Below, piece by piece: positions 1,780 through 18,100 of a stretch of 64,000 nt of DNA. The position numbers were made by a program, and so were the translations under genes. The notes under the pieces were generated by a model, which searched no databases, was not told the DNA's origin, and saw nothing but the letters and a program-made list of their open reading frames with translations. The DNA comes from a virus. The stretch lies in the IMG/VR virus record IMGVR_UViG_3300017792_000017, positions 80,969 to 144,968 of that record. One strand, given 5' to 3'. The stretch's first letter is position 1. The number at the start of each line of letters is the position of its first letter.

Positions 1780-4416
1780 TTAGATAATCAAGAAGAGATT
1801 AATGTAGTTCATTGGATAAACTACGCTGATATTCAGATTGATAATGACCTGATCCTTATTGTTAGGATCTTGAGCCAGACTTGCAATCTTGTAACTTAGC
1901 AGCGGTGAACCGATCTTCGGAAGTTTTTGACCCTTGACCAGTTCTGAAACAGAAATGATCGTTTGACGAAGAGTGTTAAGGCTATCAGGAGTAACGTTCC
2001 ACTTACCAATGAAGCTCTTAAGCTGATCGTGGTATAGGTACGATAAAAAGTCCCAATTCTTAACAACTAATAGTTCACGGAATTCAAGTACTGACACATC
2101 TGTCGTCAGTTCGTGACGAACGAAAGGAATTGAACCTTGCGTTTCTTGTACGAACAGGAATGTACCTGCAGCGGCCATTGTGTTCATCTGTGCTCTCGTA
2201 AAGAAAAAGTTTGAGAACTTCAGATCTGCAACGCCTGCAACACCAACGTTGGTGAAACCTTGTTGTACTGGGAAACCCGCAACCATACCCCCAAGGGCGG
2301 CACATAGGTAGTAGCCAGGCAGATACTTAACAACGCCATCTACGGTAATACCAACTGTATCCGGCTGAACGTGGATCACACGCTTGTCGGTGAAGGTTGT
2401 GCTAGCAGCAGCTACAGCAGTTGCCTTTTGAGCCTTGCTCAGCGTACGACCAACGTAGTAGCTAACAGCAGTTGCAGTACCAGTAGCAGCTACGACTACT
2501 TGTTGGTTATTCAGTACTTGTTGTACTTGTAGTGAACCAACTTGGGTAGGAGTGCCAGTAGCAGCAGTAACAATAACTGAGTCACCAGGAACAACGCCGT
2601 CTGACATGAATGTAGCATTTGAGGCTGTCAGTACGTAGTTACCGTTGATAACAGTAATGGTGTTGTTTCCACCGTTTGCATTAACGAAGCCACTTGAGTA
2701 CGGACCAATGTTTTGGCTCGTAGGAATTGCTGTGTTAACCAGAGCGATACGCCATGCAGCTTCCTGAGGAGTTGACATTTGATCAACGTGAGCTTGGAAT
2801 GCTGAAAGAATATCTACTTCTTGTGTAAGCGGAACTAGTGCGTAAAGACGATGGCCTTCAGCAAGTTCAAGAGCGGTTTCATAACCAATAAGGTCATCGC
2901 TCGGTACTGCGATTACATTGATCTGAGTCGTAGTATTTGCCATGCAAATTACTGAAGCCAGACCAAGCGGGTTTTGATCAGAAGTATCACCAAGGATACC
3001 TTCGATGTCACCAGTTGTCGTAAGAACTTGGATAGCGCCTGAAAGATCTGTACGAAGAGCACGGTAAGCAAAGTGAACTTCACCGCTAACAACACGACCG
3101 TAAATTACGAACGGATTAGGTTCGATTGAGATCTGGCCAGTTGTAGGAGCGTTTGAAGCATCGTAGTTTGATGTACTTGTGCTTGGGTTTACAGCAGGAA
3201 GAAGCTGGTTGTTATAAATCTTGCGAGTCTTAACAGTGAACAGAGCCTTCTTGATTACTACTGCGCCTGCGCCAACTGCTGTACCTACAGCGGGGCTGAT
3301 GGTAAGAACGTTGGTAGCTACGTTTGATACGTTTGCAACTAGGTCTGCACCGTTAGCACCTGCGCCACGGATAAGGATCGTATCACCGATTGCGATACCA
3401 GTTGCGCTTGCTACTGTGACGCTTGTTGCGCCTTGAGTAAGAGCACCAGGAACAGTTGTTTGAACGCTAAGGTCAGCCGGTAGAACGTCTGTAGTGTTCA
3501 GGGTAATCAGAGTTGAAGTCGGATTAACAACAGCGGTTACGGTCGTGCTGAATACCTTCGCTACTGAACTTGTGTTCGTGTAAGCGATATCGATAGCATC
3601 ACCTGGTTCAACTAGAAGAGTTGAAGTTGTTTGGTTAACGTTTGAAAGCGTAGCCTTAGTGATTGCTGCACCAGTTGTAGCAGTACCAGCTTGGGCTGAG
3701 ATTGTGAACGTTGTACCTGAAATGTTGCTGATCGTAGCAACTAGAGCAGCACCTGCTGCGCCTGCACCAGCGATAGAGATAACATCGCCAACTACGAAAC
3801 GAGTAGCGTTAGTAACTGCGGTTACGCTTGCTGAGCCAGCTGAAGTTGTACCTGTGCCGGTAGGCGTAGAGATATCAAGTTGATTTGCGCCTGAATATCC
3901 CAGGAAGCCACTTACAAGGGTTTCGATCTTTGCGTTGTTCAGATATACCTGAACTGAGTCTGGCTCAACTACTTGGCCAGGTTGAGTTGAAGGAAGACCA
4001 AAGGTATTTACAACACCTGAGTTGCTGATAACAGCAGTCTTCGTTACTGTTACGTTGCTTACAGTTGTACCTGCAGCAGTATCTGTCGTGGCAGTAAGGC
4101 CAGACACTGAAAGTACAGTTGCGCTAAGTGTACTACCTGTTGTAGAAGCACCAGGGATAAGTAGAACGTCACCAATAGCGAAAGGAACAGGAGTAGTAAA
4201 AGTAACTACTGCTGAACCAAGGGTCATGCTACCGATTGCGTTTACTGCTGGAACTGCTGCAGTTTGGATAAGGGATGCATTTGAACCTGCTACGTAGCTC
4301 ACTACGTTGTATGCGGGTCCAATTAGGCATACTTCCAGATCAGGAGTAACGTTAGCAACGCCGCCAGAGCTTTGGAGCTGTTGATAAACTAGTACTGATG
4401 GAACGACATATGACAT
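1780..4416 (-). CDS. tail sheath protein with inserted repeated beta domains
   Basis: N-terminal YVVPSVLVYQ; sheath-like C-terminus (RHELTTD, FRELLVVKNWD, VVYPMNYINL); position next to the tube gene. Confidence 0.85.
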   Translation of the reverse strand: MSYVVPSVLVYQQLQSSGGVANVTPDLEVCLIGPAYNVVSYVAGSNASLIQTAAVPAVNAIGSMTLGSAVVTFTTPVPFAIGDVLLIPGASTTGSTLSATVLSVSGLTATTDTAAGTTVSNVTVTKTAVISNSGVVNTFGLPSTQPGQVVEPDSVQVYLNNAKIETLVSGFLGYSGANQLDISTPTGTGTTSAGSASVTAVTNATRFVVGDVISIAGAGAAGAALVATISNISGTTFTISAQAGTATTGAAITKATLSNVNQTTSTLLVEPGDAIDIAYTNTSSVAKVFSTTVTAVVNPTSTLITLNTTDVLPADLSVQTTVPGALTQGATSVTVASATGIAIGDTILIRGAGANGADLVANVSNVATNVLTISPAVGTAVGAGAVVIKKALFTVKTRKIYNNQLLPAVNPSTSTSNYDASNAPTTGQISIEPNPFVIYGRVVSGEVHFAYRALRTDLSGAIQVLTTTGDIEGILGDTSDQNPLGLASVICMANTTTQINVIAVPSDDLIGYETALELAEGHRLYALVPLTQEVDILSAFQAHVDQMSTPQEAAWRIALVNTAIPTSQNIGPYSSGFVNANGGNNTITVINGNYVLTASNATFMSDGVVPGDSVIVTAATGTPTQVGSLQVQQVLNNQQVVVAATGTATAVSYYVGRTLSKAQKATAVAAASTTFTDKRVIHVQPDTVGITVDGVVKYLPGYYLCAALGGMVAGFPVQQGFTNVGVAGVADLKFSNFFFTRAQMNTMAAAGTFLFVQETQGSIPFVRHELTTDVSVLEFRELLVVKNWDFLSYLYHDQLKSFIGKWNVTPDSLNTLRQTIISVSELVKGQKLPKIGSPLLSYKIASLAQDPNNKDQVIINLNISVVYPMNYINLFLII

Positions 4417-5092: not shown

Positions 5093-5976
5093 GGTAAGTA
5101 CGAATCCAAGTATTGTGACGGAAAGTCTGGAAGATCTCTGGTCACTAGCTGGAACTCGACAGCTCCCTTGCTTAGCTGAGTAAGGGTCAGCATTTGTCTT
5201 ACAACGTTACCCTGTAACTCTGTAGTAGCGATTCTAGTAACTTCATATCCACTCCAATCTCCGCTACGAATTATAACATCACCAAGACGAATATCTGGCA
5301 TGGAAATTGTCCACGCTCCAATTACATTCTCTTCGTCTTGTCCAAGGTAGTTTTTGGTGAGGTTGTTTGGGGTTGGATCGTACTGCAAGAAGATCTTTGC
5401 AGGAGTGAAGTATCCGCCCTCAAAACTAGTACCGATGCAATTAGGGCAATTATCGCGGGTCGTATGCTCATGCACAGGATCCCAGCAAGTCGTACAACGT
5501 TTACCATAGTTTTTGCGCCTAAATAGATAAGAACTAATTCCACCGAACCTTGACAGAAGCCAATACTCACGTCGTTGGATTTCCATGCTGCGGATAGTTA
5601 CCCAGCTTCTTTGGAACGTTTTCCAGGTAGCGGGGTCGGATCTAAGGGCGATACTACCCTTGTCGAGAAGAAGTACTTCAACGACGTAGTATCCATGATT
5701 AAATTTGGACTCTTCTCTGAGGGTGGTGTCGATGAAGTGGTTTCCGACGATTGGGGTTGCGTTGATTTTGACAAAATCTGAATCCTCTATTTGAGAGAAG
5801 TATACATCAAATACACAGTTACCCCAGGAAGCCGGTATGGACCATTCTACAGTCGCCTGCTTGTACCACTGTGGGTAGACCTTGACTTGGATAGCCGAAG
5901 CCCTCCTAGCCGTTGTAAGAGGCAACTGAGCGGTTTGGATTAAGAACCCTGGGGTGACTGAGAAGTTGAATGCCAT
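5089..5976 (-). CDS. putative head-closure/neck protein with Zn-binding CxxC pairs
   Basis: CTTC and CPNCIGTSFEGGY; position in the neck module. Confidence 0.5.
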   Translation of the reverse strand: MAFNFSVTPGFLIQTAQLPLTTARRASAIQVKVYPQWYKQATVEWSIPASWGNCVFDVYFSQIEDSDFVKINATPIVGNHFIDTTLREESKFNHGYYVVEVLLLDKGSIALRSDPATWKTFQRSWVTIRSMEIQRREYWLLSRFGGISSYLFRRKNYGKRCTTCWDPVHEHTTRDNCPNCIGTSFEGGYFTPAKIFLQYDPTPNNLTKNYLGQDEENVIGAWTISMPDIRLGDVIIRSGDWSGYEVTRIATTELQGNVVRQMLTLTQLSKGAVEFQLVTRDLPDFPSQYLDSYLP

Positions 5977-8715: not shown

Positions 8716-9075
8716 ATGAAGACGCTCAACGGCATTACCTACGTCCAGCTTAAGACACTCACGACTGCAGAACTCAATGCACTTTGCGCGGCGTATGCTG
8801 CAAGCCAAGTTTTCATAGCTATGGAGTCTAGTGGCTTTGCTGACGAAGGTGAAAGAGATTTTGCAGACAAGTTCATGCAAATTTTCACTCGTCGTGCAGA
8901 AGAGATGTTCAATGAAAAAGTCACCGACAAAATATATTCGATGATGAGAATTCTCTACGACACGGAAGAGAAGTTCGACATGGCATCTGAAATGACAACT
9001 GAAATGGGTAACATCGCAATGATGACTCAGAAGATGATGAAGCAGATTCATCAAGATGTTCTAGCGATGCGCTAA
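8716..9075 (+). CDS. hypothetical early protein
   Basis: RBS TAAGGAG, own promoter and terminator. Confidence 0.7.
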   Translation: MKTLNGITYVQLKTLTTAELNALCAAYAASQVFIAMESSGFADEGERDFADKFMQIFTRRAEEMFNEKVTDKIYSMMRILYDTEEKFDMASEMTTEMGNIAMMTQKMMKQIHQDVLAMR

Positions 9076-9077
9076 AG

Positions 9078-9111
9078 AAAAAAGCCCAGCTAACAACTGG
9101 GCTTTTTTTAG
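9078..9111. terminator. bidirectional terminator
   Basis: AAAAAAGCCCAG-loop-CTGGGCTTTTTTTAG. Confidence 0.8.
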
Positions 9112-9201
9112 ACTTTCAGAAATAAGAAAAGCCAGGATTTTACCCCGGCTTGTCTTTAGATGGGATCACCTCCTCTCGGAAGTTCTAACCACGCTGAGTG
9201 A

Positions 9202-10095
9202 TTAGAAGTTTAGAACAACTGCACCATTTACGTTACCGATACCAGCACCTACAGCTTCGTAAGTATGGAACTCGATAATGTCTGCTTCGGTCTTCAGGAA
9301 GACTGTCGGAGCTTGAAGCTCATAGAACTGACCAAGGTAGTTCTGAGGAGCAAAAACGATTGCTTGGTTCGTCGGGAGGATGTTAGCCTTGTTCGTGGTG
9401 ATGATCTTGTAACCGAAGAAGTTATCAAGAGTCGCTTCGCCTTGGAACAGTGCTGATGCTGCCGGTGAGCCTACGTCTGTTGCTGCAAAAGTCAGCAGAT
9501 CAGCGTACATTGATTGTGTCATAAGGATACAACCAACAGGTAGCTTGTTCAGAAGCATGAACTTGATACCAGCCATCAGGTTAGCCTTTGTAAAGCCACC
9601 AGCGATGGTGTGAACGTTGCTGTTTGCTGTAGCAATAGCGTTGATGTTTTGATAGAAGTTTACGTCTTCTTGTTCTTGAATATCCTTAACGCTGTTTTCT
9701 TGAAGGATAGTACGAATGTCGGTACGGTATGTAGCGAGTTCGAACTTGCTCTTACGGAAGTCAGCTGATTGGATCTTCTGGAATGTAACTGGGTAACGTT
9801 GTGTCTTCCAGTAACGGATTTCCGGACGGCCAAGGAACGGAGCAGTAGCAGCTACTGAATCAGGTTCCTTTTCAACGATAACCGTTGGTTCTTCAGTCAG
9901 TTGGCGATCAAGCTCTGAAGCTGTGATTTGAACTGGCGTAAGAATCTTACGGGTAAAGCCGTCTTCACGAAGCTTCTGACGTACGAAAGCTGACATTGCA
10001 GCTGAAGCTTCTTTGGTGTGACCTTGGTCAATCTTGTCTAGGAAAGATTGATTCAGGAATTGTACGTTTACTGTTTCTGTGTTATATGCGCTCAT
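9202..10095 (-). CDS. major capsid protein (HK97-type fold, putative)
   Basis: Follows protease, scaffold and decoration genes; strongly biased codon use; capsid-like C-terminus (YEAVGAGIGNVNGAVVLNF); KEA site at residues 28-30. Confidence 0.75.
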   Translation of the reverse strand: MSAYNTETVNVQFLNQSFLDKIDQGHTKEASAAMSAFVRQKLREDGFTRKILTPVQITASELDRQLTEEPTVIVEKEPDSVAATAPFLGRPEIRYWKTQRYPVTFQKIQSADFRKSKFELATYRTDIRTILQENSVKDIQEQEDVNFYQNINAIATANSNVHTIAGGFTKANLMAGIKFMLLNKLPVGCILMTQSMYADLLTFAATDVGSPAASALFQGEATLDNFFGYKIITTNKANILPTNQAIVFAPQNYLGQFYELQAPTVFLKTEADIIEFHTYEAVGAGIGNVNGAVVLNF

Positions 10096-10107
10096 TTTAT
10101 TGTCCTG

Positions 10108-10530
10108 TTACGATACTTTGATTGTAATATGAGCAGTTTGCGTTGAGCTTGCTGCAACAACGTCAAGTACGAAACCGAGAATAGGGTCTGTACCAGCTAG
10201 ACCCAGAGCGATTTGACCGCTTTTAACAGTAACAGGTGAACCAGGCTGATATGAGCCTGCTGCGAAGTTTGAGATGCTTGCAATGAAGTTACCCCAAAGA
10301 ACAACTGCCTTACCTGAGTAAGCTGATGAGCTACTATCGCCGTTACCAACAATTACTAGGCCGACTGAATTACTTGCTGCCGCTGCTGACTTGTCGATGG
10401 TGTTGTCTGATTGCTTGGCAACCCAGTCGCCGTTTTGCAGAGTAACACCTGACTTGATCGGCTCGACACGCTCTAGAGAACCATCATACGGCCAGCCACG
10501 GATGATCTCTGCGTTACGTTCCATTAACAT
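10108..10530 (-). CDS. putative head decoration protein
   Basis: 140 aa, beta-rich, immediately upstream of the MCP gene. Confidence 0.6.
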   Translation of the reverse strand: MLMERNAEIIRGWPYDGSLERVEPIKSGVTLQNGDWVAKQSDNTIDKSAAAASNSVGLVIVGNGDSSSSAYSGKAVVLWGNFIASISNFAAGSYQPGSPVTVKSGQIALGLAGTDPILGFVLDVVAASSTQTAHITIKVS

Positions 10531-10672
10531 ATTTATTTCCTTGTATATGTTTCTATTTTTAAATAAACCGAGTAAAGACTATATCTACTCGGCTCAAAAT
10601 TCTTTCACAACATTTCTATTTTAATGTGGAAAAATAGTAGTGTGGGAAATCGATTATTTTTAGCTAAAAAAT

Positions 10673-11272
10673 TTAGCTCAGCATGAATTCAAGAAGGGGA
10701 TCAGTCTTAGGACGAGCAAAGCCTACGCCATTACCCATTCCCCACGGTTCATCCATTGCAGATGCAACCTTCTGAAGAACTTCAGGAGAGACTCGTTGGA
10801 GTTGTTCCAGATCTTCTTGTGTGAACTGAGCGGCAGAAGCCAGCTTAGTGATTTGCTCAGGCATCTCTACAGGCACTTCTAGAGCCCTATCGAGTGCAAC
10901 TTGATGTTCGGTAGCCTGCTTCTCAATCTCAGCCTTCAGGCCTTCGATTTGGGCTTCTAGAGCATCAACGTATTCAGCTGTCTTGTGCAGAAGTTCAACC
11001 GTTGGATTTTCATCTACTTCAAGAACGAAGTTTGAAAGTTCAGCAACGTTAATGTTTGCTGCTTTAACAAGCTTTACAGCTTCTTCATGATCAACGCCCT
11101 TCATAGCTAGAGCTGACGTAGCCTCTTTTTCCATGATATGTTGAGCTACTTGATAACGAGCATCTGCATCGCTAAAACCAGCTTGCTTAAGATGTTCGAT
11201 AGCAACAGCTTCGGGAGTTGCAAGACGAACTGTTTCAGCGTGGTCTTTGAGGATTGTTGATAGTTTAGTCAT
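10673..11272 (-). CDS. scaffold/core-like protein rich in KxA sites
   Basis: Likely start MTKLS at 11272; acidic and helical; about 7 KxA motifs. Confidence 0.6.
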   Translation of the reverse strand: MTKLSTILKDHAETVRLATPEAVAIEHLKQAGFSDADARYQVAQHIMEKEATSALAMKGVDHEEAVKLVKAANINVAELSNFVLEVDENPTVELLHKTAEYVDALEAQIEGLKAEIEKQATEHQVALDRALEVPVEMPEQITKLASAAQFTQEDLEQLQRVSPEVLQKVASAMDEPWGMGNGVGFARPKTDPLLEFMLS

Positions 11273-11693
11273 TTGTCTTTTTGCTATGGAGCGGGCTAAA
11301 ACCTGCATTAGCCATGCGCTTATTGTGATCGATATGCCCAGAAATTTTACCAGCTAAAGTAACACCTAGAGAACCGGCGATGAGACCTGCGTTAAATTTT
11401 CCAAGTTTTTTTCCAGCAAGTAAAGCTTCTCTAGAAAAACCTTCTGGCACTCCAGTTGAGAGCATTTTTCTATGAGCAGCCTCTACTAGAGAAGTGCCAG
11501 CTTTAGCACCTGCGAATCCTGCAGCTGCCATCGAGCCTAAAGCTATGCCGGGATGTACGCCTTTGGCTTCATGGTATTTCTTAAAGTCAGATTTATCCAA
11601 ATTCACGCTTTTGATATTGAAAAACTTCTTATCATCTGAGTGAGGCTTAACCTGATAACTTTCAGCAACTTTCTCTAAGTACTTATTGGACAT
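11265..11693 (-). CDS. NKYLEKVA-tagged internal head protein with Gly/Ala hydrophobic segments
   Basis: MSNKYLEKVAES start. Confidence 0.6.
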   Translation of the reverse strand: MSNKYLEKVAESYQVKPHSDDKKFFNIKSVNLDKSDFKKYHEAKGVHPGIALGSMAAAGFAGAKAGTSLVEAAHRKMLSTGVPEGFSREALLAGKKLGKFNAGLIAGSLGVTLAGKISGHIDHNKRMANAGFSPLHSKKTND

Positions 11694-12108
11694 GTTTGTT
11701 AATCTGTTTATTTAGTTTAACACCAGCATAGTCTGCTGCTAAACCAGCTGCTCCACTTAACGCCATAATTTTAGCGTTGTGAAGTTTGGCACCTTGCCCG
11801 AATACCTTAGGCATAGAGTTCATCAGCTTATGAGCACCAAAGCCTGTAGCTGTGCCCAAACCAGCGATTACGCCAGTGTTGACCAGCTCTTGTTTATGTG
11901 TTAAATCCTGCGCAGCTTTATACAACGCTCTGGTAAAGAGAGTCTTAGCTCCCCGTATCAGTTTTGAACCAGGTGCCGTAATAGGCGCTGGTTCTTTTAC
12001 TTTCCCTAGGCTTACATCTTTCTTGACAATCATACCAGCCGATTTGATGCGACCTTGAGTGTCCATGTCAAAATTAAGACTAGCGATTTTTTCAAGATAT
12101 TTGTTCAT
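11683..12108 (-). CDS. NKYLEKIA-tagged internal head protein
   Basis: MNKYLEKIAS start; Gly-rich segments. Confidence 0.6.
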   Translation of the reverse strand: MNKYLEKIASLNFDMDTQGRIKSAGMIVKKDVSLGKVKEPAPITAPGSKLIRGAKTLFTRALYKAAQDLTHKQELVNTGVIAGLGTATGFGAHKLMNSMPKVFGQGAKLHNAKIMALSGAAGLAADYAGVKLNKQINKHVQ

Positions 12109-12177
12109 AGTTACCTAATAAAAAACCCCTCTACATCGAGGATACAGAGGGGTTCTTACTTTATAAAATCAAGCTAG

Positions 12178-12735
12178 TTAGTCTGCTTTAGATTTATGTT
12201 TCTTGTCTGCTAGAGCACCTTTGATTGCCGAGTAGGCTTTTCCGCCAAGGTATCCACCGCCGACAGATCCTGCAACAAGTCCTGGAAGTCCAGCTGCATG
12301 AACACCTGCTACAGCACCTGCAGTACCGGTTACGAATCCTGACAAGGTACCACCTACTTTATCACCTTTTTTGGATCCAGCATAACCACTTAGTGCACTA
12401 AGAAGAGCTTCTTTTTCTAACTCAGAAGCCTTCTTTTCTACTAGATCAACTGCATTTTCAAAATCCAGACCTGAGTCTACCAGAAGACTTACTGCAGCTT
12501 GTTTTTCTTGGTTTTTGTTCTTTTGTACTGCGGCGCCAACACCTAGACCTAAGACTCCTGCGCCAGTGGCCGCTGCTGCGACCCTAGCCTTATTCAGTGT
12601 GCGTGGAGCACCCATAACATTCTTGGGACCCCCACCTGAGCCTGGAATACGTGTGACTTTTTGAGCTAACGAAGTGCCTGGAACTTTACCCGCTAGTTGC
12701 AGGACACCCGCTTCTTTCGTTAGCCCAGCTTTTTT
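12178..12735 (-). CDS. -1 frameshift extension of the scaffold protein (glycine-zipper tail)
   Basis: Frame is open from the slippery site A AAA AAG (12735-12729) through the 12615 ORF; carries a third scaffold repeat. Confidence 0.65.
   Translation of the reverse strand, partial: KKAGLTKEAGVLQLAGKVPGTSLAQKVTRIPGSGGGPKNVMGAPRTLNKARVAAAATGAGVLGLGVGAAVQKNKNQEKQAAVSLLVDSGLDFENAVDLVEKKASELEKEALLSALSGYAGSKKGDKVGGTLSGFVTGTAGAVAGVHAAGLPGLVAGSVGGGYLGGKAYSAIKGALADKKHKSKAD
12662..12735 (-). promoter_or_regulatory. programmed -1 ribosomal frameshift signal (slippery heptamer + stem-loop)
   Basis: A AAA AAG followed by the stem TGGGCTAACGAA/TTCGTTAGCTCA with further internal pairing. Confidence 0.7.
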
Positions 12736-13583
12736 ACCAAGTTTACTGCGGTGTCAAAATCGAAGCCAGCTTCGATGAAGTGTGACAGTGCAGCTTGCTT
12801 AACTTGTGAAGCTTCTTCACGTTCGATTTCTTCAGCAGCTTCCTTGACCATGTTTACTGCATCGTCAAATTCAAAGCCTTGTTCTACGAGTGATGAAACT
12901 GCAGCAGCCTTTTCTTGACCAGCCGTTACCCAACCACCAGTTTGAACTTGGTTAGGAGCTTGTGCACCGATTTGTGCGCCTTCATCCTTAGCAACGCCAG
13001 GAGCAGGATTTTGATCAACTGGAGCAGCGCCACGAGCCATTGCGTCAGCAACGATTGCGTCGAAGATTTGGTTGATTGTACCACCATTACCCTTGCCGTC
13101 TGTGCCGGGTTGGTTCTGGATGATAGCATCTTGTTCAGCTACTTGAGCTGCAAGATCTTGTTGTGTCTTGTTCGGTACAGCATTACCAATACCGTTAACG
13201 GTATTTTGGTCACCTACTGAAGCCAGCTTTTCAAGAAGAGCTTCGGCTAGTGCCTTGCCTGCGTCAGCAGCTTGTTTGTTCATAGTATCCTCTGGTTTAA
13301 CTTGATCAAGTTTAATGGATGCAACTTTTTGCATTACTTCTTTTGCTAAGTCAGCGCCTTTAGCCGCAGCTTCTTTGACACGTTCATCAGCATCGTTCTT
13401 CTCTTTGGCGTCCTTGACTTCTTCCTTAGCTTCCTTTACATCTTTGTCAGCTTTGTCGATAGCCTTTTCTGCCTTATCTTCATCTTTCTTTTCTTCTTTC
13501 TCTGTATCTTCACTAGCTACTTTATGGAGGCCAGCTTCTTTTTGCAGATCATTAAGAAGACCGTCTAGAGTGAAACTCATCAT
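12720..13583 (-). CDS. prohead scaffolding protein
   Basis: Directly downstream of the protease; acidic and helical; 9 or more KxA sites; C-terminal helical repeats. Confidence 0.7.
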   Translation of the reverse strand: MMSFTLDGLLNDLQKEAGLHKVASEDTEKEEKKDEDKAEKAIDKADKDVKEAKEEVKDAKEKNDADERVKEAAAKGADLAKEVMQKVASIKLDQVKPEDTMNKQAADAGKALAEALLEKLASVGDQNTVNGIGNAVPNKTQQDLAAQVAEQDAIIQNQPGTDGKGNGGTINQIFDAIVADAMARGAAPVDQNPAPGVAKDEGAQIGAQAPNQVQTGGWVTAGQEKAAAVSSLVEQGFEFDDAVNMVKEAAEEIEREEASQVKQAALSHFIEAGFDFDTAVNLVKKLG

Positions 13584-13641
13584 GACTAATATCCTTTTTT
13601 AATAGGGCTACGTTGAATTGTAGCCTTTCGAAAATCTTAGG

Positions 13642-15156
13642 TCAATTCTTTTTCTTCTGAACCAACTTAACCATCGCTGTTTTGGCGAGTTTGTAAGTCA
13701 GCTTATAGTCAGAAGCAGATTTAACTAAAACTATTTTAACACCATCTGAAGCCTTGTTCAATTCTTGCTCTTTCATTTTCCGCTCTATTGCTTGGGTAAT
13801 GTACCACTTAGCAGCTAGAGCAGCTCCGCCGATAGCAGCAATGGCAGTAAGCATCTTCATCAAACTTGACTTATTCCCTTCTTCTGACTTGAGATTCTGT
13901 TCACGGAACTTTTCGTAAATCGTAGGTTCGATGTGAGGACCGTTGCCGACAAAGCCAACATTAGTACCCTGTACATAACCGTAAGTCGAAGCCTGTTTGT
14001 TCAGCGATACACGTTCCTCAACATACTGTGGAAGATACGAGGCATCCTGCATATGAGGAAGCATAGCATGAACGATACCGATGTTGGGTTCTGTAATTTC
14101 ACCGAAATCACGGTCGAATTCGGGAATAGCAGTAAGACCAACCTTATCAAAATATGCAGCAGCCATTGGGCCAATGCCGCGCCCTTCTTCACCCATCAAT
14201 TTTCTAGCAATCAGTTCAGCGAGAAAACCAATCGAAGGGCTAATGCCAAGATGAGCAAAGGTACTAAAAGTCTCATTAAGCTTATAATTTCGAAGAACAT
14301 CGATAACCGATCCTTGCGGATCACTAACTCGTGATACAAGATTATCAAGATTAGAATCGATAGATACAACATCGCCATCAATCTCCTTCGTTAATTCTGA
14401 AAGCTTTTTAAGAGTAGCACTCTTCTGTAACGGAAGGTCATTTAGACCAGCCATTAGCGCCTCATCCACTGAACCAATCACTTCGCTTTCAGATGCTACT
14501 TTCTGTAGAACTGCGCTAGTTACGTCTGCTGGACGAAATACAATAGAGATGTCGAAGAATCGCAATGGAGCCAAGTTAAGCGCCATTACCTTACGACCAT
14601 CAGGGAAAACCTTACCCAACTGTTCGCTTAGATGCTCACAATACTCTTCACGGGTACGAGCTTTGTTACCACAAATTGAACAAACATCGAAAGGTGTACG
14701 GCAAGCCATTGAAGTCTTTGGCCAGTCACCGCTTTCGATACGATCAACGATGTCTGGAGCCTTGTCGTTCCAAAGCTCAGCGATAAGCTCAACGCGGTGC
14801 ATTCTGTCGTTGTAGACAGAGTACACAACTTGACCAATAGCGATTTCGGGATTTTTGTTTACGTGGTTTCTGAAAATATGGGCAGGAGCAGTCTCAAAGG
14901 TATTGTGGTAATCAATGAGGTTACTTTCTGGGAAGTAGTCAGCATTACGGTTTGCACCATAAAACTCTCCAGCACCCATAGCTAGAATGTGAAGATACGT
15001 CTTGCCCTGAATGGGCGTTAGTTTAGAAGCGAATTCTTGAATGCGAGAATCCGTAGCCTGCTTAATAAGACTGCCTGTAAGATCTTTGGGATCGAGAATA
15101 GTTACCTGTGGTTCTTCACGGTAAAAAGAAGACGTATCGATTAGTTTAGTTAGCAT
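13642..15156 (-). CDS. prohead maturation protease with Zn ribbon
   Basis: FRNHVN...AIGQV, TSMACRTPFDVCSICGN, CEHL, FFDISIVFRPAD: HK97/herpes-type protease layout. Confidence 0.7.
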   Translation of the reverse strand: MLTKLIDTSSFYREEPQVTILDPKDLTGSLIKQATDSRIQEFASKLTPIQGKTYLHILAMGAGEFYGANRNADYFPESNLIDYHNTFETAPAHIFRNHVNKNPEIAIGQVVYSVYNDRMHRVELIAELWNDKAPDIVDRIESGDWPKTSMACRTPFDVCSICGNKARTREEYCEHLSEQLGKVFPDGRKVMALNLAPLRFFDISIVFRPADVTSAVLQKVASESEVIGSVDEALMAGLNDLPLQKSATLKKLSELTKEIDGDVVSIDSNLDNLVSRVSDPQGSVIDVLRNYKLNETFSTFAHLGISPSIGFLAELIARKLMGEEGRGIGPMAAAYFDKVGLTAIPEFDRDFGEITEPNIGIVHAMLPHMQDASYLPQYVEERVSLNKQASTYGYVQGTNVGFVGNGPHIEPTIYEKFREQNLKSEEGNKSSLMKMLTAIAAIGGAALAAKWYITQAIERKMKEQELNKASDGVKIVLVKSASDYKLTYKLAKTAMVKLVQKKKN

Positions 15157-15179
15157 AGTTCTATTTTACAGGCGAATCT

Positions 15180-15989
15180 TTATTTTGACTCTTTCTTCGG
15201 ATGCCACTTGTCCATAATTTTCTTGGCAAGATATGCACCGGCTACTGGGATTGCAGCCCCAACAGCATAAGAGCCCATTTGCGAAGGTAGAAGCTTGCGT
15301 ACATACTTATTAGCAGCGGCAGCTCCCTTGTGGGCTTTAATTCCTTTGTATGCATGGTAATTAGCAGCAGCTTCTTCTCTTAAAGTTAGTGCGCCAGGAA
15401 TAGCTGCAACGGCTGGAGCGTAATCACGAGTCTTGTCATTTGAAAGAGCTGCAATGGTAGCAACACTACTTACTCCGGGCATTTTGGCAATTGGAGCCAA
15501 CGCTTTAAGCTTTCCGTAACTTTGGAAGTCTTTGGCGTGGCCAAGTTCATGCATTAGAACGTCAGCGTTCTTAACAGTCTTTCCACCATTTCTTAATCCT
15601 ACTACAAAGTCTTTTTGAGCACCTACCCCTCTGGTACGTAGAAACGCAGGTCCAGGAGCGTCATTACTAGCTAAGTGTTTATAAATCTTTCCCAAAGGAT
15701 TCTTTGAAAAAGTCATTTTATCTACATTGTGCTTTCTAGTATTGAAAGTAGTGGTTTTATGTAAACCATTATCTTTCATAAACTTTCTAAGGGTGTGGTG
15801 ATCTGCTCCAGAATCGCTGTGAGAAGCTGATATTGCAGATACAACTTTTCTAGATACTGCATGCTGTAGGGCACCACCGGCTACTCCCGCAGAAAAGCCT
15901 CCAAGCAAGGAGGCTCCTACTGCTGAAACAACTTTAGACTTATCTTTGTTCTTGTCTGATGCTATTTTTTCTAAATACTTATTTTGCAT
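15180..15989 (-). CDS. NKYLEKIA-tagged zinc metallopeptidase (zincin)
   Basis: MQNKYLEKIAS; HELGH with downstream EEAAAN; hydrophobic segments. Confidence 0.65.
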   Translation of the reverse strand: MQNKYLEKIASDKNKDKSKVVSAVGASLLGGFSAGVAGGALQHAVSRKVVSAISASHSDSGADHHTLRKFMKDNGLHKTTTFNTRKHNVDKMTFSKNPLGKIYKHLASNDAPGPAFLRTRGVGAQKDFVVGLRNGGKTVKNADVLMHELGHAKDFQSYGKLKALAPIAKMPGVSSVATIAALSNDKTRDYAPAVAAIPGALTLREEAAANYHAYKGIKAHKGAAAANKYVRKLLPSQMGSYAVGAAIPVAGAYLAKKIMDKWHPKKESK

Positions 15990-16293
15990 TTTGGTCAGGG
16001 ACTAATTTCAGATTTACGGTTACCTTAGGCTTTTTCCTAAGAGCCTCTGAAATACCCTTAAGCTCGTTCAGCGATTGCGCCTCAAGTACGCCACGTTTTT
16101 TATTGTCAAGCTTATTCTCTAGGCTATTACTATAATTAGCAGCGCCTAGAGAGAGACCGGCAGCAGACATACCCAGACCAACTTTAGAAGTTGTTGAGCT
16201 TCGTTTCCAGCCCTTCGCAAAACTTTTGCCGAAACCAGTTATGGATTCAGCTACAGCTTTTGCGGATGCGATTTTCTCTAGGTACTTATTCAT
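15979..16293 (-). CDS. NKYLEKIA-tagged basic internal protein
   Basis: MNKYLEKIAS start; VGLGMSAAGLSLGAA segment. Confidence 0.6.
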   Translation of the reverse strand: MNKYLEKIASAKAVAESITGFGKSFAKGWKRSSTTSKVGLGMSAAGLSLGAANYSNSLENKLDNKKRGVLEAQSLNELKGISEALRKKPKVTVNLKLVPDQNAK

Positions 16294-16295
16294 AT

Positions 16296-16844
16296 TTATA
16301 GGAACGACTTAGGTGAGAACGAACTGTTATCTTTCCAACGACCTTCTAGATCTGTAAGACTCTTGATAGTCATAATATCAATGCCGTCACCATGAACTGC
16401 GTTGGTAAGAACAGATTGTAGCAGATTAGGATCAGTTGCAACCATAGGTGCAAACTTATAGATTGTATCTGCGTAATGCTCTACCTTAGAACGCTCAGCG
16501 GTCTGAAGGATATGAGAGTTTGAAATAGCTTGTAGAAGAGCCTTCTTAAAGCGATTATAGCGAAATTGATCTACTACGCTCTTCGCTGCACCTGAAAACA
16601 TCCAAAGACCTGTACCTACTGCAAGTCCACCTGCTGATTTACCAGCTTGTTCCAGAAAGCCCTTTGCAACGCTTTCGCCTGGACCCATAACACGGGATTG
16701 AGCAGCATTAGCTTGTTTTTCAACTTCTTCAGCAGCTTCTTTTTCAAGCATTACATGCGTAACAAAACCGGCTAGAAATTCATCAGCCAGTTTTTCGTCT
16801 CCAGCAAACTTCTCAAGACCCATTTGCTTAACTTCATTTAACAT
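16296..16844 (-). CDS. putative processed internal head protein
   Basis: LEKFA, LEKEA and VEKQA sites followed by a Gly-rich segment. Confidence 0.55.
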   Translation of the reverse strand: MLNEVKQMGLEKFAGDEKLADEFLAGFVTHVMLEKEAAEEVEKQANAAQSRVMGPGESVAKGFLEQAGKSAGGLAVGTGLWMFSGAAKSVVDQFRYNRFKKALLQAISNSHILQTAERSKVEHYADTIYKFAPMVATDPNLLQSVLTNAVHGDGIDIMTIKSLTDLEGRWKDNSSFSPKSFL

Positions 16845-16872
16845 TTTATGTTGTTCCTTTATTCAATCTTTA

Positions 16873-17955
16873 TTAATCACGCTGGAGAGCGCTCCAGACA
16901 TCGTTACTTCTACCGGTTGTCTTGTCTACACCTGGATCATAGAAAGCTGCATCAGCTATAGGACCAGCAGCATTAAACAAAGACTTACCAGCGCTTACTG
17001 TAGTCTTACCGATAGCCTTTGCTGTATTTTTTATGGTGGGTTTACCAAGTGCTGAAAGATTGTCTTTAACAGACTTATTAACAGCTCCGCCTACTGCCTT
17101 TGCTACTCTCATCGGAGAAGATGCTACAGTACCGATTATCTTACCTGCTGCGTATGCCGGGTTAGCTTTTTGAGCAGTAACCTTAGCAGAAGCTGCAGCT
17201 CCGTTCATGGCCCTAGTGAACATGTTTGATTTTACACCTTGCGCAGCATCAGCAGCGCGTTTCTGAAGACCAGAACGCTCACGTTGTTCACGAACAAGTT
17301 CACGAGCTTGTTTGTACAGATCTGCAAAAGCATTTACTTCTTTAAGCTGAGCTGATTTAAATAGACCTAGCTCACCAATATCACGATACGCTTTAACTTC
17401 GCCAGAAACGAGGACAGAAAGCTCTGAGAACGTTTGTTCTTCTGTGACACATGCCAGCTTATCCATCCATGCATCATCCTTGCTAAGAGCCTTTGCGGCC
17501 TTCACAAGCGTATCTGCTAAAACGATAGCATCAATCTCTAGGCGATCAAGAGCTTCTTTGTTAGCTGCTGCTGACTTTATAAGATATGTGAGCTTCTCTG
17601 CTTCTACTAATTCTAGTTCGTGGCTTGAAGCTTCTTTCTCAAGATTTGCTTGAAGCTCTTCTGCTTTTACTTGTGCTACTTTTTCTTGAAAACCTTCAGG
17701 AATCGTAGCTGCTGACATTACTTCAGCAAACTTAGCTAGGGGGAATTCTACTGTGCGGTCTTCTGCATGTTGAAGAACCTTCAAATAAGCAATGTTATTC
17801 GTTGATTCAACAGCACGCTTCACTTGTTCTACATTCAGTTCGTAAGCGGCTGCTTGTTTAGCAAGGCCCTTGCTCAGAGGAACTTTATTGTTCAGGAAAT
17901 CTTCAACTGCTTGAACTGAGATATCCCGAATAAGTTCAGGGGTTACGTTTGCCAT
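16873..17955 (-). CDS. putative inner-head/core protein rich in KxA sites
   Basis: About 11 KxA motifs; TAAAATA at 17978-17984; likely start MANVT. Confidence 0.55.
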   Translation of the reverse strand: MANVTPELIRDISVQAVEDFLNNKVPLSKGLAKQAAAYELNVEQVKRAVESTNNIAYLKVLQHAEDRTVEFPLAKFAEVMSAATIPEGFQEKVAQVKAEELQANLEKEASSHELELVEAEKLTYLIKSAAANKEALDRLEIDAIVLADTLVKAAKALSKDDAWMDKLACVTEEQTFSELSVLVSGEVKAYRDIGELGLFKSAQLKEVNAFADLYKQARELVREQRERSGLQKRAADAAQGVKSNMFTRAMNGAAASAKVTAQKANPAYAAGKIIGTVASSPMRVAKAVGGAVNKSVKDNLSALGKPTIKNTAKAIGKTTVSAGKSLFNAAGPIADAAFYDPGVDKTTGRSNDVWSALQRD

Positions 17956-18100
17956 TCTTGGCTCCATTCTGTGACTTTATTTTAACCTTGGCTGACAAGG
18001 ATATAAAAGGCTTCTTGGGATGCTTAATAGCCTTTTGACCTTTACGCATCGTAAGCTGACCCTTCTTTTTAGACGCTATTTTTTCTAGGTATATGTTCAT
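17936..18100 (-). CDS. 54-aa highly basic tagged protein (MNIYLEKIASKKKG...)
   Basis: Translated by hand; missed by the ORF track; carries the tag. Confidence 0.65.
   Translation of the reverse strand: MNIYLEKIASKKKGQLTMRKGQKAIKHPKKPFISLSAKVKIKSQNGAKNGKRNP

Follow-up and report, generated by a model that had tools for sequence, protein, structure and literature searches.

We are concerned here with the 3' end of a scaffold-like head gene in the window, as we call a 64,000-nucleotide stretch of viral DNA (IMG/VR record IMGVR_UViG_3300017792_000017, positions 80,969 to 144,968), where a programmed -1 ribosomal frameshift very probably gives rise to a long isoform of the gene product. The genes of this head module lie on the minus strand, as do all features of the window described below. 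They begin with a prohead protease homologue of 504 aa (15156..13642), which matches PHROG 2774 and PHROG 18299 ('head maturation protease'). Next in the open reading frame (ORF) list comes an acidic 287-aa ORF (13583..12720), whose N-terminal part is rich in Lys, Glu and Asp, then a Gly-rich ORF of 145 aa (12615..12178) and several small ORFs, and finally the major capsid protein (297 aa; 10095..9202), a match to PHROG 2522. The 287-aa ORF thus sits between the prohead protease and major capsid genes. In the reading developed here it encodes the short isoform of a scaffold-like protein, and the Gly-rich ORF is part of a -1 frame that extends it. The original prediction, drawn from the sequence of the window alone, had proposed such a frameshift and a glycine-zipper tail on the long isoform.

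The slip site and the open -1 frame

The 287-aa ORF ends with GTA AAA AAG CTG GGC TAA. It carries the slippery heptamer A_AAA_AAG (12729..12735) in the X_XXY_YYZ phase and in register with the zero frame. The slip-site core GTA AAA occupies 12732..12737, and the zero-frame stop codon TAA (12720..12722) stands two codons past the heptamer. Read from the G at 12729, the -1 frame translates as AGLTKEAGVLQ... and meets no stop until 12178. This extension (12178..12729; 183 codons plus stop) takes in ORF 12615..12178 and, joined to the scaffold, would make a long isoform of ~468 aa. The junction in the product is identical whichever place in the A run the slip happens. The heptamer, its phase, the scaffold 3' end and the coordinates of the open -1 frame are all as the original prediction had them. 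The entire 144,968-bp single-contig genome holds five in-phase A_AAA_AAG sites in ORFs of at least 100 aa. Since the site at the scaffold end is the only one of them with a long -1 frame (183 codons versus 2 to 56 elsewhere), it is more than a chance occurrence.

A blastn search of GenBank phages with the region gave no DNA match, and relatives were therefore reached via the protease protein. This led to Salmonella phage Arash and Vibrio phages D69, D148 and D181, at ~46% identity, and to 21 uncultured viral contigs (designated below, where needed, by L numbers). A protein search with the 287-aa ORF listed 120 homologous clusters. Long forms of about 310-500 aa, terminating directly behind a further repeat, account for 95 of them, and short forms for 23. 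The C-terminal ends of the short forms read VKKLG (13 clusters), VKRLG (4), VKTLG (2), KKHLG (2), KKLQG (1) and VKQLS (1).

DNA was compared for 13 short-form lineages, the window included, which show 64-99% scaffold identity and come from separate samples and assemblers. This comparison establishes the site and its conservation. In all 13, GTA AAA is followed by one or two codons, CTG or CAG and an invariant GGC TAA, and the -1 frame continues past the site without a stop; in the lineages with complete contigs this frame is 99-271 codons long. Six lineages have AAG as the third codon of the slip site, and two have AAA together with an extra codon; AGA or AGG occurs in two, ACA in another two and CGT in one. 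The heptamer A_AAA_AAG is identical to that of the window in L003/4/5, L008, L028, L036 and L037. Hence, of the heptamer that relatives had been expected to conserve, the GTA AAA part is invariant (13 of 13), and the full A_AAA_AAG is found in only 6 of 13. Nucleotide identity among four lineages is maximal exactly at the slip site, where it reaches 0.96 per 45 nt, the top value in the gene.

Codon differences establish which frame is translated 3' of the site. The ratio of synonymous to nonsynonymous differences is 72:47 in the -1 frame, versus 7:108 and 12:106 in the other two. With 13 lineages the figures are 171:269 versus 66:349 and 55:369. These data bear on the trivial possibility that the gene is split by an assembly or sequencing error in the homopolymer, or that it is a recently broken gene with a decaying 3' part. 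One added A would indeed restore a single ORF. Against this, the same layout recurs in 13 diverged lineages, the downstream frame is under purifying selection, and nucleotide conservation peaks at the site. The A6 site is shared with five other independent assemblies, drawn from collections of viruses and of metagenomes, and a pattern search of the viral collection that permitted A5 to A8 returned A6 only. The homopolymer error named in the original prediction as an alternative thus finds no counterpart in the assemblies recovered, all of which have A6 and never A5, A7 or A8. The comparative data (13 lineages, selection on the -1 frame) rule out both sequencing error and a pseudogene, and we attach a practically negligible probability to this explanation.

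A second explanation dispenses with the frameshift and has the downstream ORF translated as a separate protein, from an internal or non-canonical start or by termination-reinitiation. The window does have an ATG at 12615, L032 and L034 have TAATG at the scaffold stop, gene callers give a separate ORF, and the equivalent protein of Arash is encoded separately. However, no Shine-Dalgarno match precedes the ATG at 12615, in agreement with the earlier remark that ORF 12615..12178 has no clear ribosome-binding site (RBS). Nor is this ATG conserved, its place being taken by CTT, CTC or CTA in relatives. Depending on the lineage, the first ATG, GTG or TTG of the extension is codon 2, 8, 31, 32, 37, 39, 53, 62 or 94, and L036 has none of the three in its entire 99-codon extension. 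As no start is conserved and one lineage lacks any, independent initiation cannot explain the -1 ORF; initiation at 12615, which had been put forward as the competing possibility, does not hold. Moreover, the stretch between heptamer and start is under -1 frame coding constraint and is homologous to the in-frame linker of single-ORF relatives. A separate protein is accordingly a very improbable explanation of the locus.

In L032 (3380-3395) and L034 (1332-1347), the ATG of the TAATG lies in the -1 frame and occurs besides A_AAA_AAA and a 6-nt spacer. In both lineages frameshifting could be supplemented by termination-reinitiation.

The homologous gene is a single ORF in L006/L007/L010, L009, L011, L012, L013 and L014/L015. 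When the trans-frame product of the window (built by script) is aligned with these single-ORF long forms, the two are colinear throughout: repeats 1 and 2, junction, linker, Gly/Ala-rich hydrophobic segment and repeat 3. The junction produced by a slip on the A run, VKK-AGL, matches the conserved [VI]K[EQ]AG of the in-frame proteins. An A run is absent from the homologous Val/Ile/Thr-Lys codons of seven single-ORF relatives, which read ACA AAG, ATC AAA, GTT AAA and so on. Judged from these homologues, a long protein of the trans-frame kind would be a real protein. In capsid and protease trees every outgroup is single-ORF, and L006/L007 fall with the frameshifting lineages in one tight clade. 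This makes the split arrangement the derived one, and the long form would represent the ancestral architecture, kept as one ORF in outgroup phages.

The phage contig encodes only two tRNAs, both outside the window: Lys(UUU) and Arg(UCU), at genome positions 3219-3293 and 3829-3904. The tRNA-Lys(UUU) decodes both codons of the slippery heptamer. AGA or AGG, for its part, stands in for AAG at the slip site of two relatives of this phage with its tRNA-Arg(UCU). A study of the lambda G/GT system describes an effect of the modification state of tRNA-Lys on frameshifting (PMC3296357). A tie between the phage tRNA-Lys(UUU), or its modification, and the slip site is speculation.

RNA structure and the mode of slippage

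The original prediction had placed a long stem-loop directly after the heptamer. Its arms, 12727-12716 and 12673-12662, exist, and the basal helix and a second helix, GTG.C/GGCAC, are conserved in relatives; the apical AACT/AGTT pairing is not. A 91-nt stretch of the window folds with a minimum free energy of -26.8 kcal/mol (z = -2.5), and an equally good fold was found in 1 of 200 shuffles. RNAalifold, applied to the 13-lineage alignment, gives two helices that flank a variable apical part. Helix 1 pairs GGCUAACGA (12717..12725; the pairing in the window extends to 12727-12716) with UCGUUAGCU (12664..12672; extending to 12673-12662). It has 9 bp, is 100% paired and includes one compensatory pair, C-G to U-A. 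Helix 2 pairs GUGUC (12703..12707) with GGCAC (12674..12678) over 5 bp, of which two are compensatory, U-A to C-G and G-C to A-U. The pairing is established by comparison of the lineages: over the 14 pairs, 98.9% of cells are paired, versus 25-42% after the partners have been shifted by one to three columns. The covarying stem that had been looked for in relatives is thus seen, with three compensatory pairs among 13 lineages, a count matched by none of 500 shuffles. The slip-site region matched no Rfam family.

Helix 1 starts 6 nt past the first AAA. In L032 and L034, where an extra codon is inserted, the site A_AAA_AAA lies exactly 6 nt ahead of helix 1, and this suggests that the quantity preserved among the lineages is the distance from a Lys codon to the helix.

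The same alignment draws attention to another place where ribosomes might slip, two codons later at G_GGC_UAA. There, the peptidyl-tRNA-Gly would move back one base with the stop codon in the A site and yield ...VKKLG-LTKEAG. CTG/CAG GGC TAA is invariant in the 13 lineages, while the third codon of the A-run heptamer varies, and it is generally known that slow decoding of a stop codon can promote slippage in the P site. However, the invariance of GGGCTAA is already accounted for by the stop codon, the Gly-Leu codons of the -1 frame and the helix arm. On GGG, re-pairing of tRNA-Gly(GCC) would involve a wobble mismatch; on the A run, that of tRNA-Lys is perfect. Helix 1, whose 5' arm contains the site, would be melted at the time of the slip; this leaves the 5-bp helix 2, 12 nt away, and deprives the covarying helix 1 of a role. 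Finally, VKKLGL fits the [VI]K[EQ]AG of single-ORF proteins worse than VKK-AGL does, and every frameshifting lineage has the A run, which no in-frame one shows at the homologous codons. We consider slippage at G_GGC_UAA unlikely, if somewhat less so than a separate protein.

A different slippery heptamer stands at the end of the homologous gene in a sister clade. In Vibrio phage D69 (L002, OZ195729; 9212-9697) the gene ends with GCG GGA AAG TAA, so that G_GGA_AAG is in phase. A 6-nt spacer and a 12+4 bp hairpin follow (-32.4 kcal/mol, z = -2.8), and the -1 frame leads without a stop into a Gly-rich ORF. L029 (6171-6679), which shares 67% protease identity with D69, has the same G_GGA_AAG and 6-nt spacer, a different and equally strong hairpin (z = -3.4) and, again, a -1 frame open into a Gly-rich ORF. 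By its sequence, the D69/L029 cassette is a second, independent case of the frameshift layout at the end of this gene. In the GenBank annotation of D69 the downstream coding sequence begins at 9389, 167 nt past the scaffold stop, and the open -1 stretch before it is unannotated.

It may also be asked whether the RNA polymerase, rather than the ribosome, slips on the A run, giving A7 transcripts in which the long form is a single continuous ORF. Runs that support transcriptional slippage are usually about 8-9 bases or longer, as against six here and only 4-5 in five of the lineages. The product, VKK-AGL, would be identical, and slippage of this kind at A runs occurs in Thermus dnaX and some insertion sequence (IS) elements, as related in the review by Atkins et al. 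2016 (PMC5009743). However, the conserved and covarying RNA structure downstream is expected for ribosomal slippage instead, and the G_GGA_AAG of the sister clade is not a homopolymer. Transcriptional slippage therefore appears as improbable as a separate protein.

The proposal that a programmed -1 frameshift gives rise to a long isoform of the scaffold is borne out by the conservation of the site in 13 lineages, a -1 ORF devoid of a start of its own, a coding signature confined to the -1 frame, colinear single-ORF homologues and a covarying structure. We infer from these that ribosomes do slip here in vivo, and hold this with considerable confidence. Several points nevertheless weigh against it. 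The canonical heptamer is not universal: 5 of the 13 lineages have AGA, AGG, ACA or CGT, which leaves A_AAA alone for the slip, and weaker slippage is expected there. No upstream Shine-Dalgarno-like stimulator, as in dnaX, is conserved in the slip-site alignments of the lineages. The conserved helix begins only 3 nt past the heptamer in the window, or 1 nt if window-specific pairs are counted, while the usual spacing is 5-9 nt. Support from RNA covariation appears real but not overwhelming, because 6 of the 14 pairs are invariant, hence uninformative, and because the 5' arm of helix 1 lies in overlapping coding sequence, which itself limits change.

Two further points of this kind concern the gene rather than the slip. 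In Salmonella phage Arash the downstream Gly-rich protein has a gene and an RBS to itself; a terminator-like hairpin, the RBS and an ATG lie between the two genes. It follows that this group of phages does not depend on fusion to the scaffold. In addition, the label 'scaffold' derives from where the gene lies, from its composition and from a helical model of low confidence, and comes without a Pfam or PHROG family. Neither the ORF nor its extension belongs to such a family at E <= 0.01, and the sole match of the ORF is a chance-level one to Dynamitin (15.9 bits versus a cut-off of 31.8). The AlphaFold 2 model of the 287-aa form is all-helical, with a mean predicted local distance difference test score (pLDDT) of 58, which denotes low confidence, and of 77-82 in the C-terminal repeats. 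A fold search with this model was judged meaningless at such low confidence. As to Arash, mass spectrometry of virion preparations revealed gp222, gp223 and gp224 (PMC10585845). For the scaffold homologue gp223, this detection neither proves nor excludes a scaffold role.

The extension and its possible role in the head

Several modules can be recognized in the extension. Just past the junction, in the -1 frame, stands LTKEA (12709..12723), a candidate prohead-protease site; the statement that the frameshift restores a KEA site was therefore correct. The same position in single-ORF relatives is taken by LTKIA or an IKEAG-type sequence. A Gly/Ala-rich hydrophobic segment follows at residues 49-67 of the extension (12529..12585; Kyte-Doolittle mean of 1.35 over 19 aa) and is present in all long forms. 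Residues 74-104 (12418..12510) form a third copy of the scaffold helix-loop-helix repeat, as had been claimed. BLASTP aligns this repeat with the last repeat of the single-ORF long forms, at residues 372-402/405 (E 2e-6) and 382-412/415 (E 4e-7).

The remainder of the extension consists of LEKEA and a basic, Gly-rich tail of the GxxxG type (12181..12420), which resembles a cargo module. Its homologue in L003 is a stand-alone 85-aa gene (10314..10571) with a MNKYLEKIA-type leader, and it is separate in L006 too. The tail is fused behind LEKxA to the extension in the window, L008, L028, L031 and L038. Altogether, 5 of the 10 frameshifting lineages that are complete carry appended Gly-rich modules, versus none of the 95 in-frame long forms, all of which end just past repeat 3. 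The two arrangements, fused or leader-tagged, suggest two alternative routes of the Gly-rich module into the head. The description of the tail as a glycine zipper is borne out in part. The extension does have runs of the GxxxG type, with hydropathy peaks of 1.24-1.35, but in the window it reaches no Pfam glycine-zipper model (PF13488, PF05433, PF13441) even at E <= 5, and a tail is fused in only about half of the frameshifting lineages. The stand-alone homologue in L003 scores E 0.058 and 0.3 against such models (13.7 and 11.5 bits versus cut-offs of 24-25).

LTKEA and LEKEA are instances of a hydrophobic-x-K-x-A motif that recurs in the head module (9202-17967). It is found near the capsid N-terminus (HTKEA, residues 26-30), in the scaffold (LQKEA, residues 14-18), in the protease outside its core, at module borders and at the end of a leader. 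Its distribution makes it a likely candidate for the prohead-protease site. The leader in question, M(x)NKYLEKIA/VA, begins four otherwise unrelated ORFs of the window (11683-12108, 11265-11693, 15180-15989 and 15979-16293) and many head-module genes of relatives, e.g. 5446-5976, 8810-9235, 9225-9716 and 10314-10571 in L003. By analogy, MNKYLEKIA(S) looks like a capsid-targeting and cleavage leader of the kind found on T4 internal proteins.

The following sequence of events is consistent with these observations. The likely transcript would run from a sigma-70-like promoter match upstream of the scaffold start (13617..13645; 10 of 12 positions) to a terminator-like hairpin with a T run 3' of the extension ORF (12117..12142). 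Consensus matching, on which both assignments are based, disclosed no terminator-like site between the scaffold and extension ORFs. The majority of ribosomes would read GTA AAA AAG CTG GGC, stop, and release the 287-aa short form. A minority would slip back one base with tRNA-Lys on the A run, probably aided by the two-helix RNA structure, and translate 183 more codons in the -1 frame. The rate of slippage would then set the number of scaffold copies that bear the extension. By co-assembling via its scaffold part, the long form would build a limited number of extra modules into the prohead, where the prohead protease is presumed to cut at LTKEA and LEKEA and so free the modules inside the head. 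In this scheme the fixed fraction of scaffold and the membrane-active nature of the cargo, as supposed in the original prediction, are both conjectural.

A broader proposal is that the frameshift at the scaffold end is an evolved dosing device for head cargo. It would have at least two origins, one with the A run and one with G_GGA_AAG in the Vibrio-phage clade. A single long scaffold would have been turned into a short majority form and a rare long form, to which bulky, hydrophobic Gly-rich modules could then be appended, and the phage tRNA-Lys(UUU) could tune the rate. We offer this proposal tentatively and regard it as possible rather than probable.

Comparison with known frameshift systems

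Programmed frameshifting in tailed phages is textbook knowledge in the case of tail chaperones, and capsid proteins provide further known examples. The mechanism considered here is of the known dnaX, IS3 or lambda G/GT kind. Full-text literature searches yielded no description of it in a scaffold-like gene, nor did the recoding review by Atkins et al. 2016 (PMC5009743), in whose first 300,000 characters the word 'scaffold' is absent.

E. coli dnaX (tau/gamma) shares with the window the A_AAA_AAG heptamer, tRNA-Lys(UUU), a downstream stem-loop and two products in a set ratio. However, the shifted frame of dnaX stops at once, so that slippage yields the short product, and here it would yield the long one. 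In addition, the dnaX heptamer is preceded by a Shine-Dalgarno-like stimulator and followed by a 6-nt spacer, whereas no such stimulator is seen here and the helix lies 3 nt past the heptamer (6 nt past the first AAA). OrfAB of the IS3 family (IS911, IS3, IS150) is similar in having A_AAA_AAG or A_AAA_AAA towards the 3' end of ORF A, an RNA structure and fusion to a start-poor ORF B. It differs in its transposition context, in the greater overlap of ORF B with ORF A and in the lack of protease processing.

The tail chaperone G/GT of lambda, with its G_GGA_AAG conserved in tailed phages, resembles the present case in being a late structural gene in which slippage takes place a few codons short of the stop, the C-terminally extended form is minor and the ratio matters. 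G_GGA_AAG is also the heptamer of D69 and L029. The lambda gene is nonetheless a tail gene and the proteins are unrelated. The G/GT frameshift is not known to require a strong downstream structure.

Closer to the head are the frameshift extensions of capsid proteins in T7/T3 (10A/10B), Lactobacillus phage A2 and Listeria phages A118, A500 and PSA, which also involve head genes with two isoforms and a slip near the 3' end (PMC5009743). In these phages the major capsid protein is extended, often by an Ig-like domain outside the shell. Here the protein is internal and scaffold-like, and the extension consists of a scaffold repeat and hydrophobic Gly-rich modules. Retroviral and totiviral Gag-Pol, also treated in that review (PMC5009743), provides a parallel in logic, in that a minority fusion loads a set number of cargo molecules via an assembly protein and a viral protease frees the cargo. 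Unlike Pol, the cargo here is no enzyme of known activity; hosts and lineages are unrelated, and cleavage and packaging are in our case putative. The CsoS2A/CsoS2B pair of alpha-carboxysomes is akin to the present protein as a repeat-rich, flexible scaffold of an icosahedral shell, made in short and long forms by -1 frameshifting, with a C-terminal module in the long form only (same review; PMC5009743). In CsoS2, in contrast, the frameshift yields the truncated form; the shell is that of a bacterial organelle, and there is no homology. The capsid-targeting sequence of T4 internal proteins, lastly, has its likeness in the ~10-aa leader MNKYLEKIA shared by neighbouring genes here. The T4 leader differs in sequence and in cleavage motif, and targeting and cleavage in the present phage are putative.

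If confirmed, the frameshift would provide a simple, testable rule by which the number of protein copies packaged in a phage head is fixed, analogous to Gag-Pol. The lineages also offer a natural series of slip-site variants (AAG, AAA, AGA, AGG, ACA and CGT, with or without a 3-nt shift of the spacer), with single-ORF relatives as controls, which should be useful for the study of bacterial frameshift sites. There is a practical side as well. Gene callers split or truncate the scaffold-like gene in every relative examined, and the annotation of D69 omits 167 nt of coding sequence.

Some minor observations concern neighbouring genes. The leader-tagged ORF 15180-15989 (269 aa) contains HELGH, an instance of the HExxH motif, along with Gly/Ala-rich hydrophobic stretches. 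It may encode a packaged metallopeptidase; a search of Pfam and PHROG at E <= 0.01 gave nothing for it. In Arash (L001), a stretch of 71 nt (9760-9830) is shared, in different frames, by gp224 and gp225 as annotated. The table in the Arash paper also includes a gp225.1 (PMC10585845), and the true start of gp225 may lie further downstream. An overlap of 44 nt is likewise seen in the window between ORFs 10673-11308 and 11265-11693. Relatives of the former use a later start, MTKLSTILK... (199 aa in L003), so that its longest-ORF start at 11308 is probably wrong.

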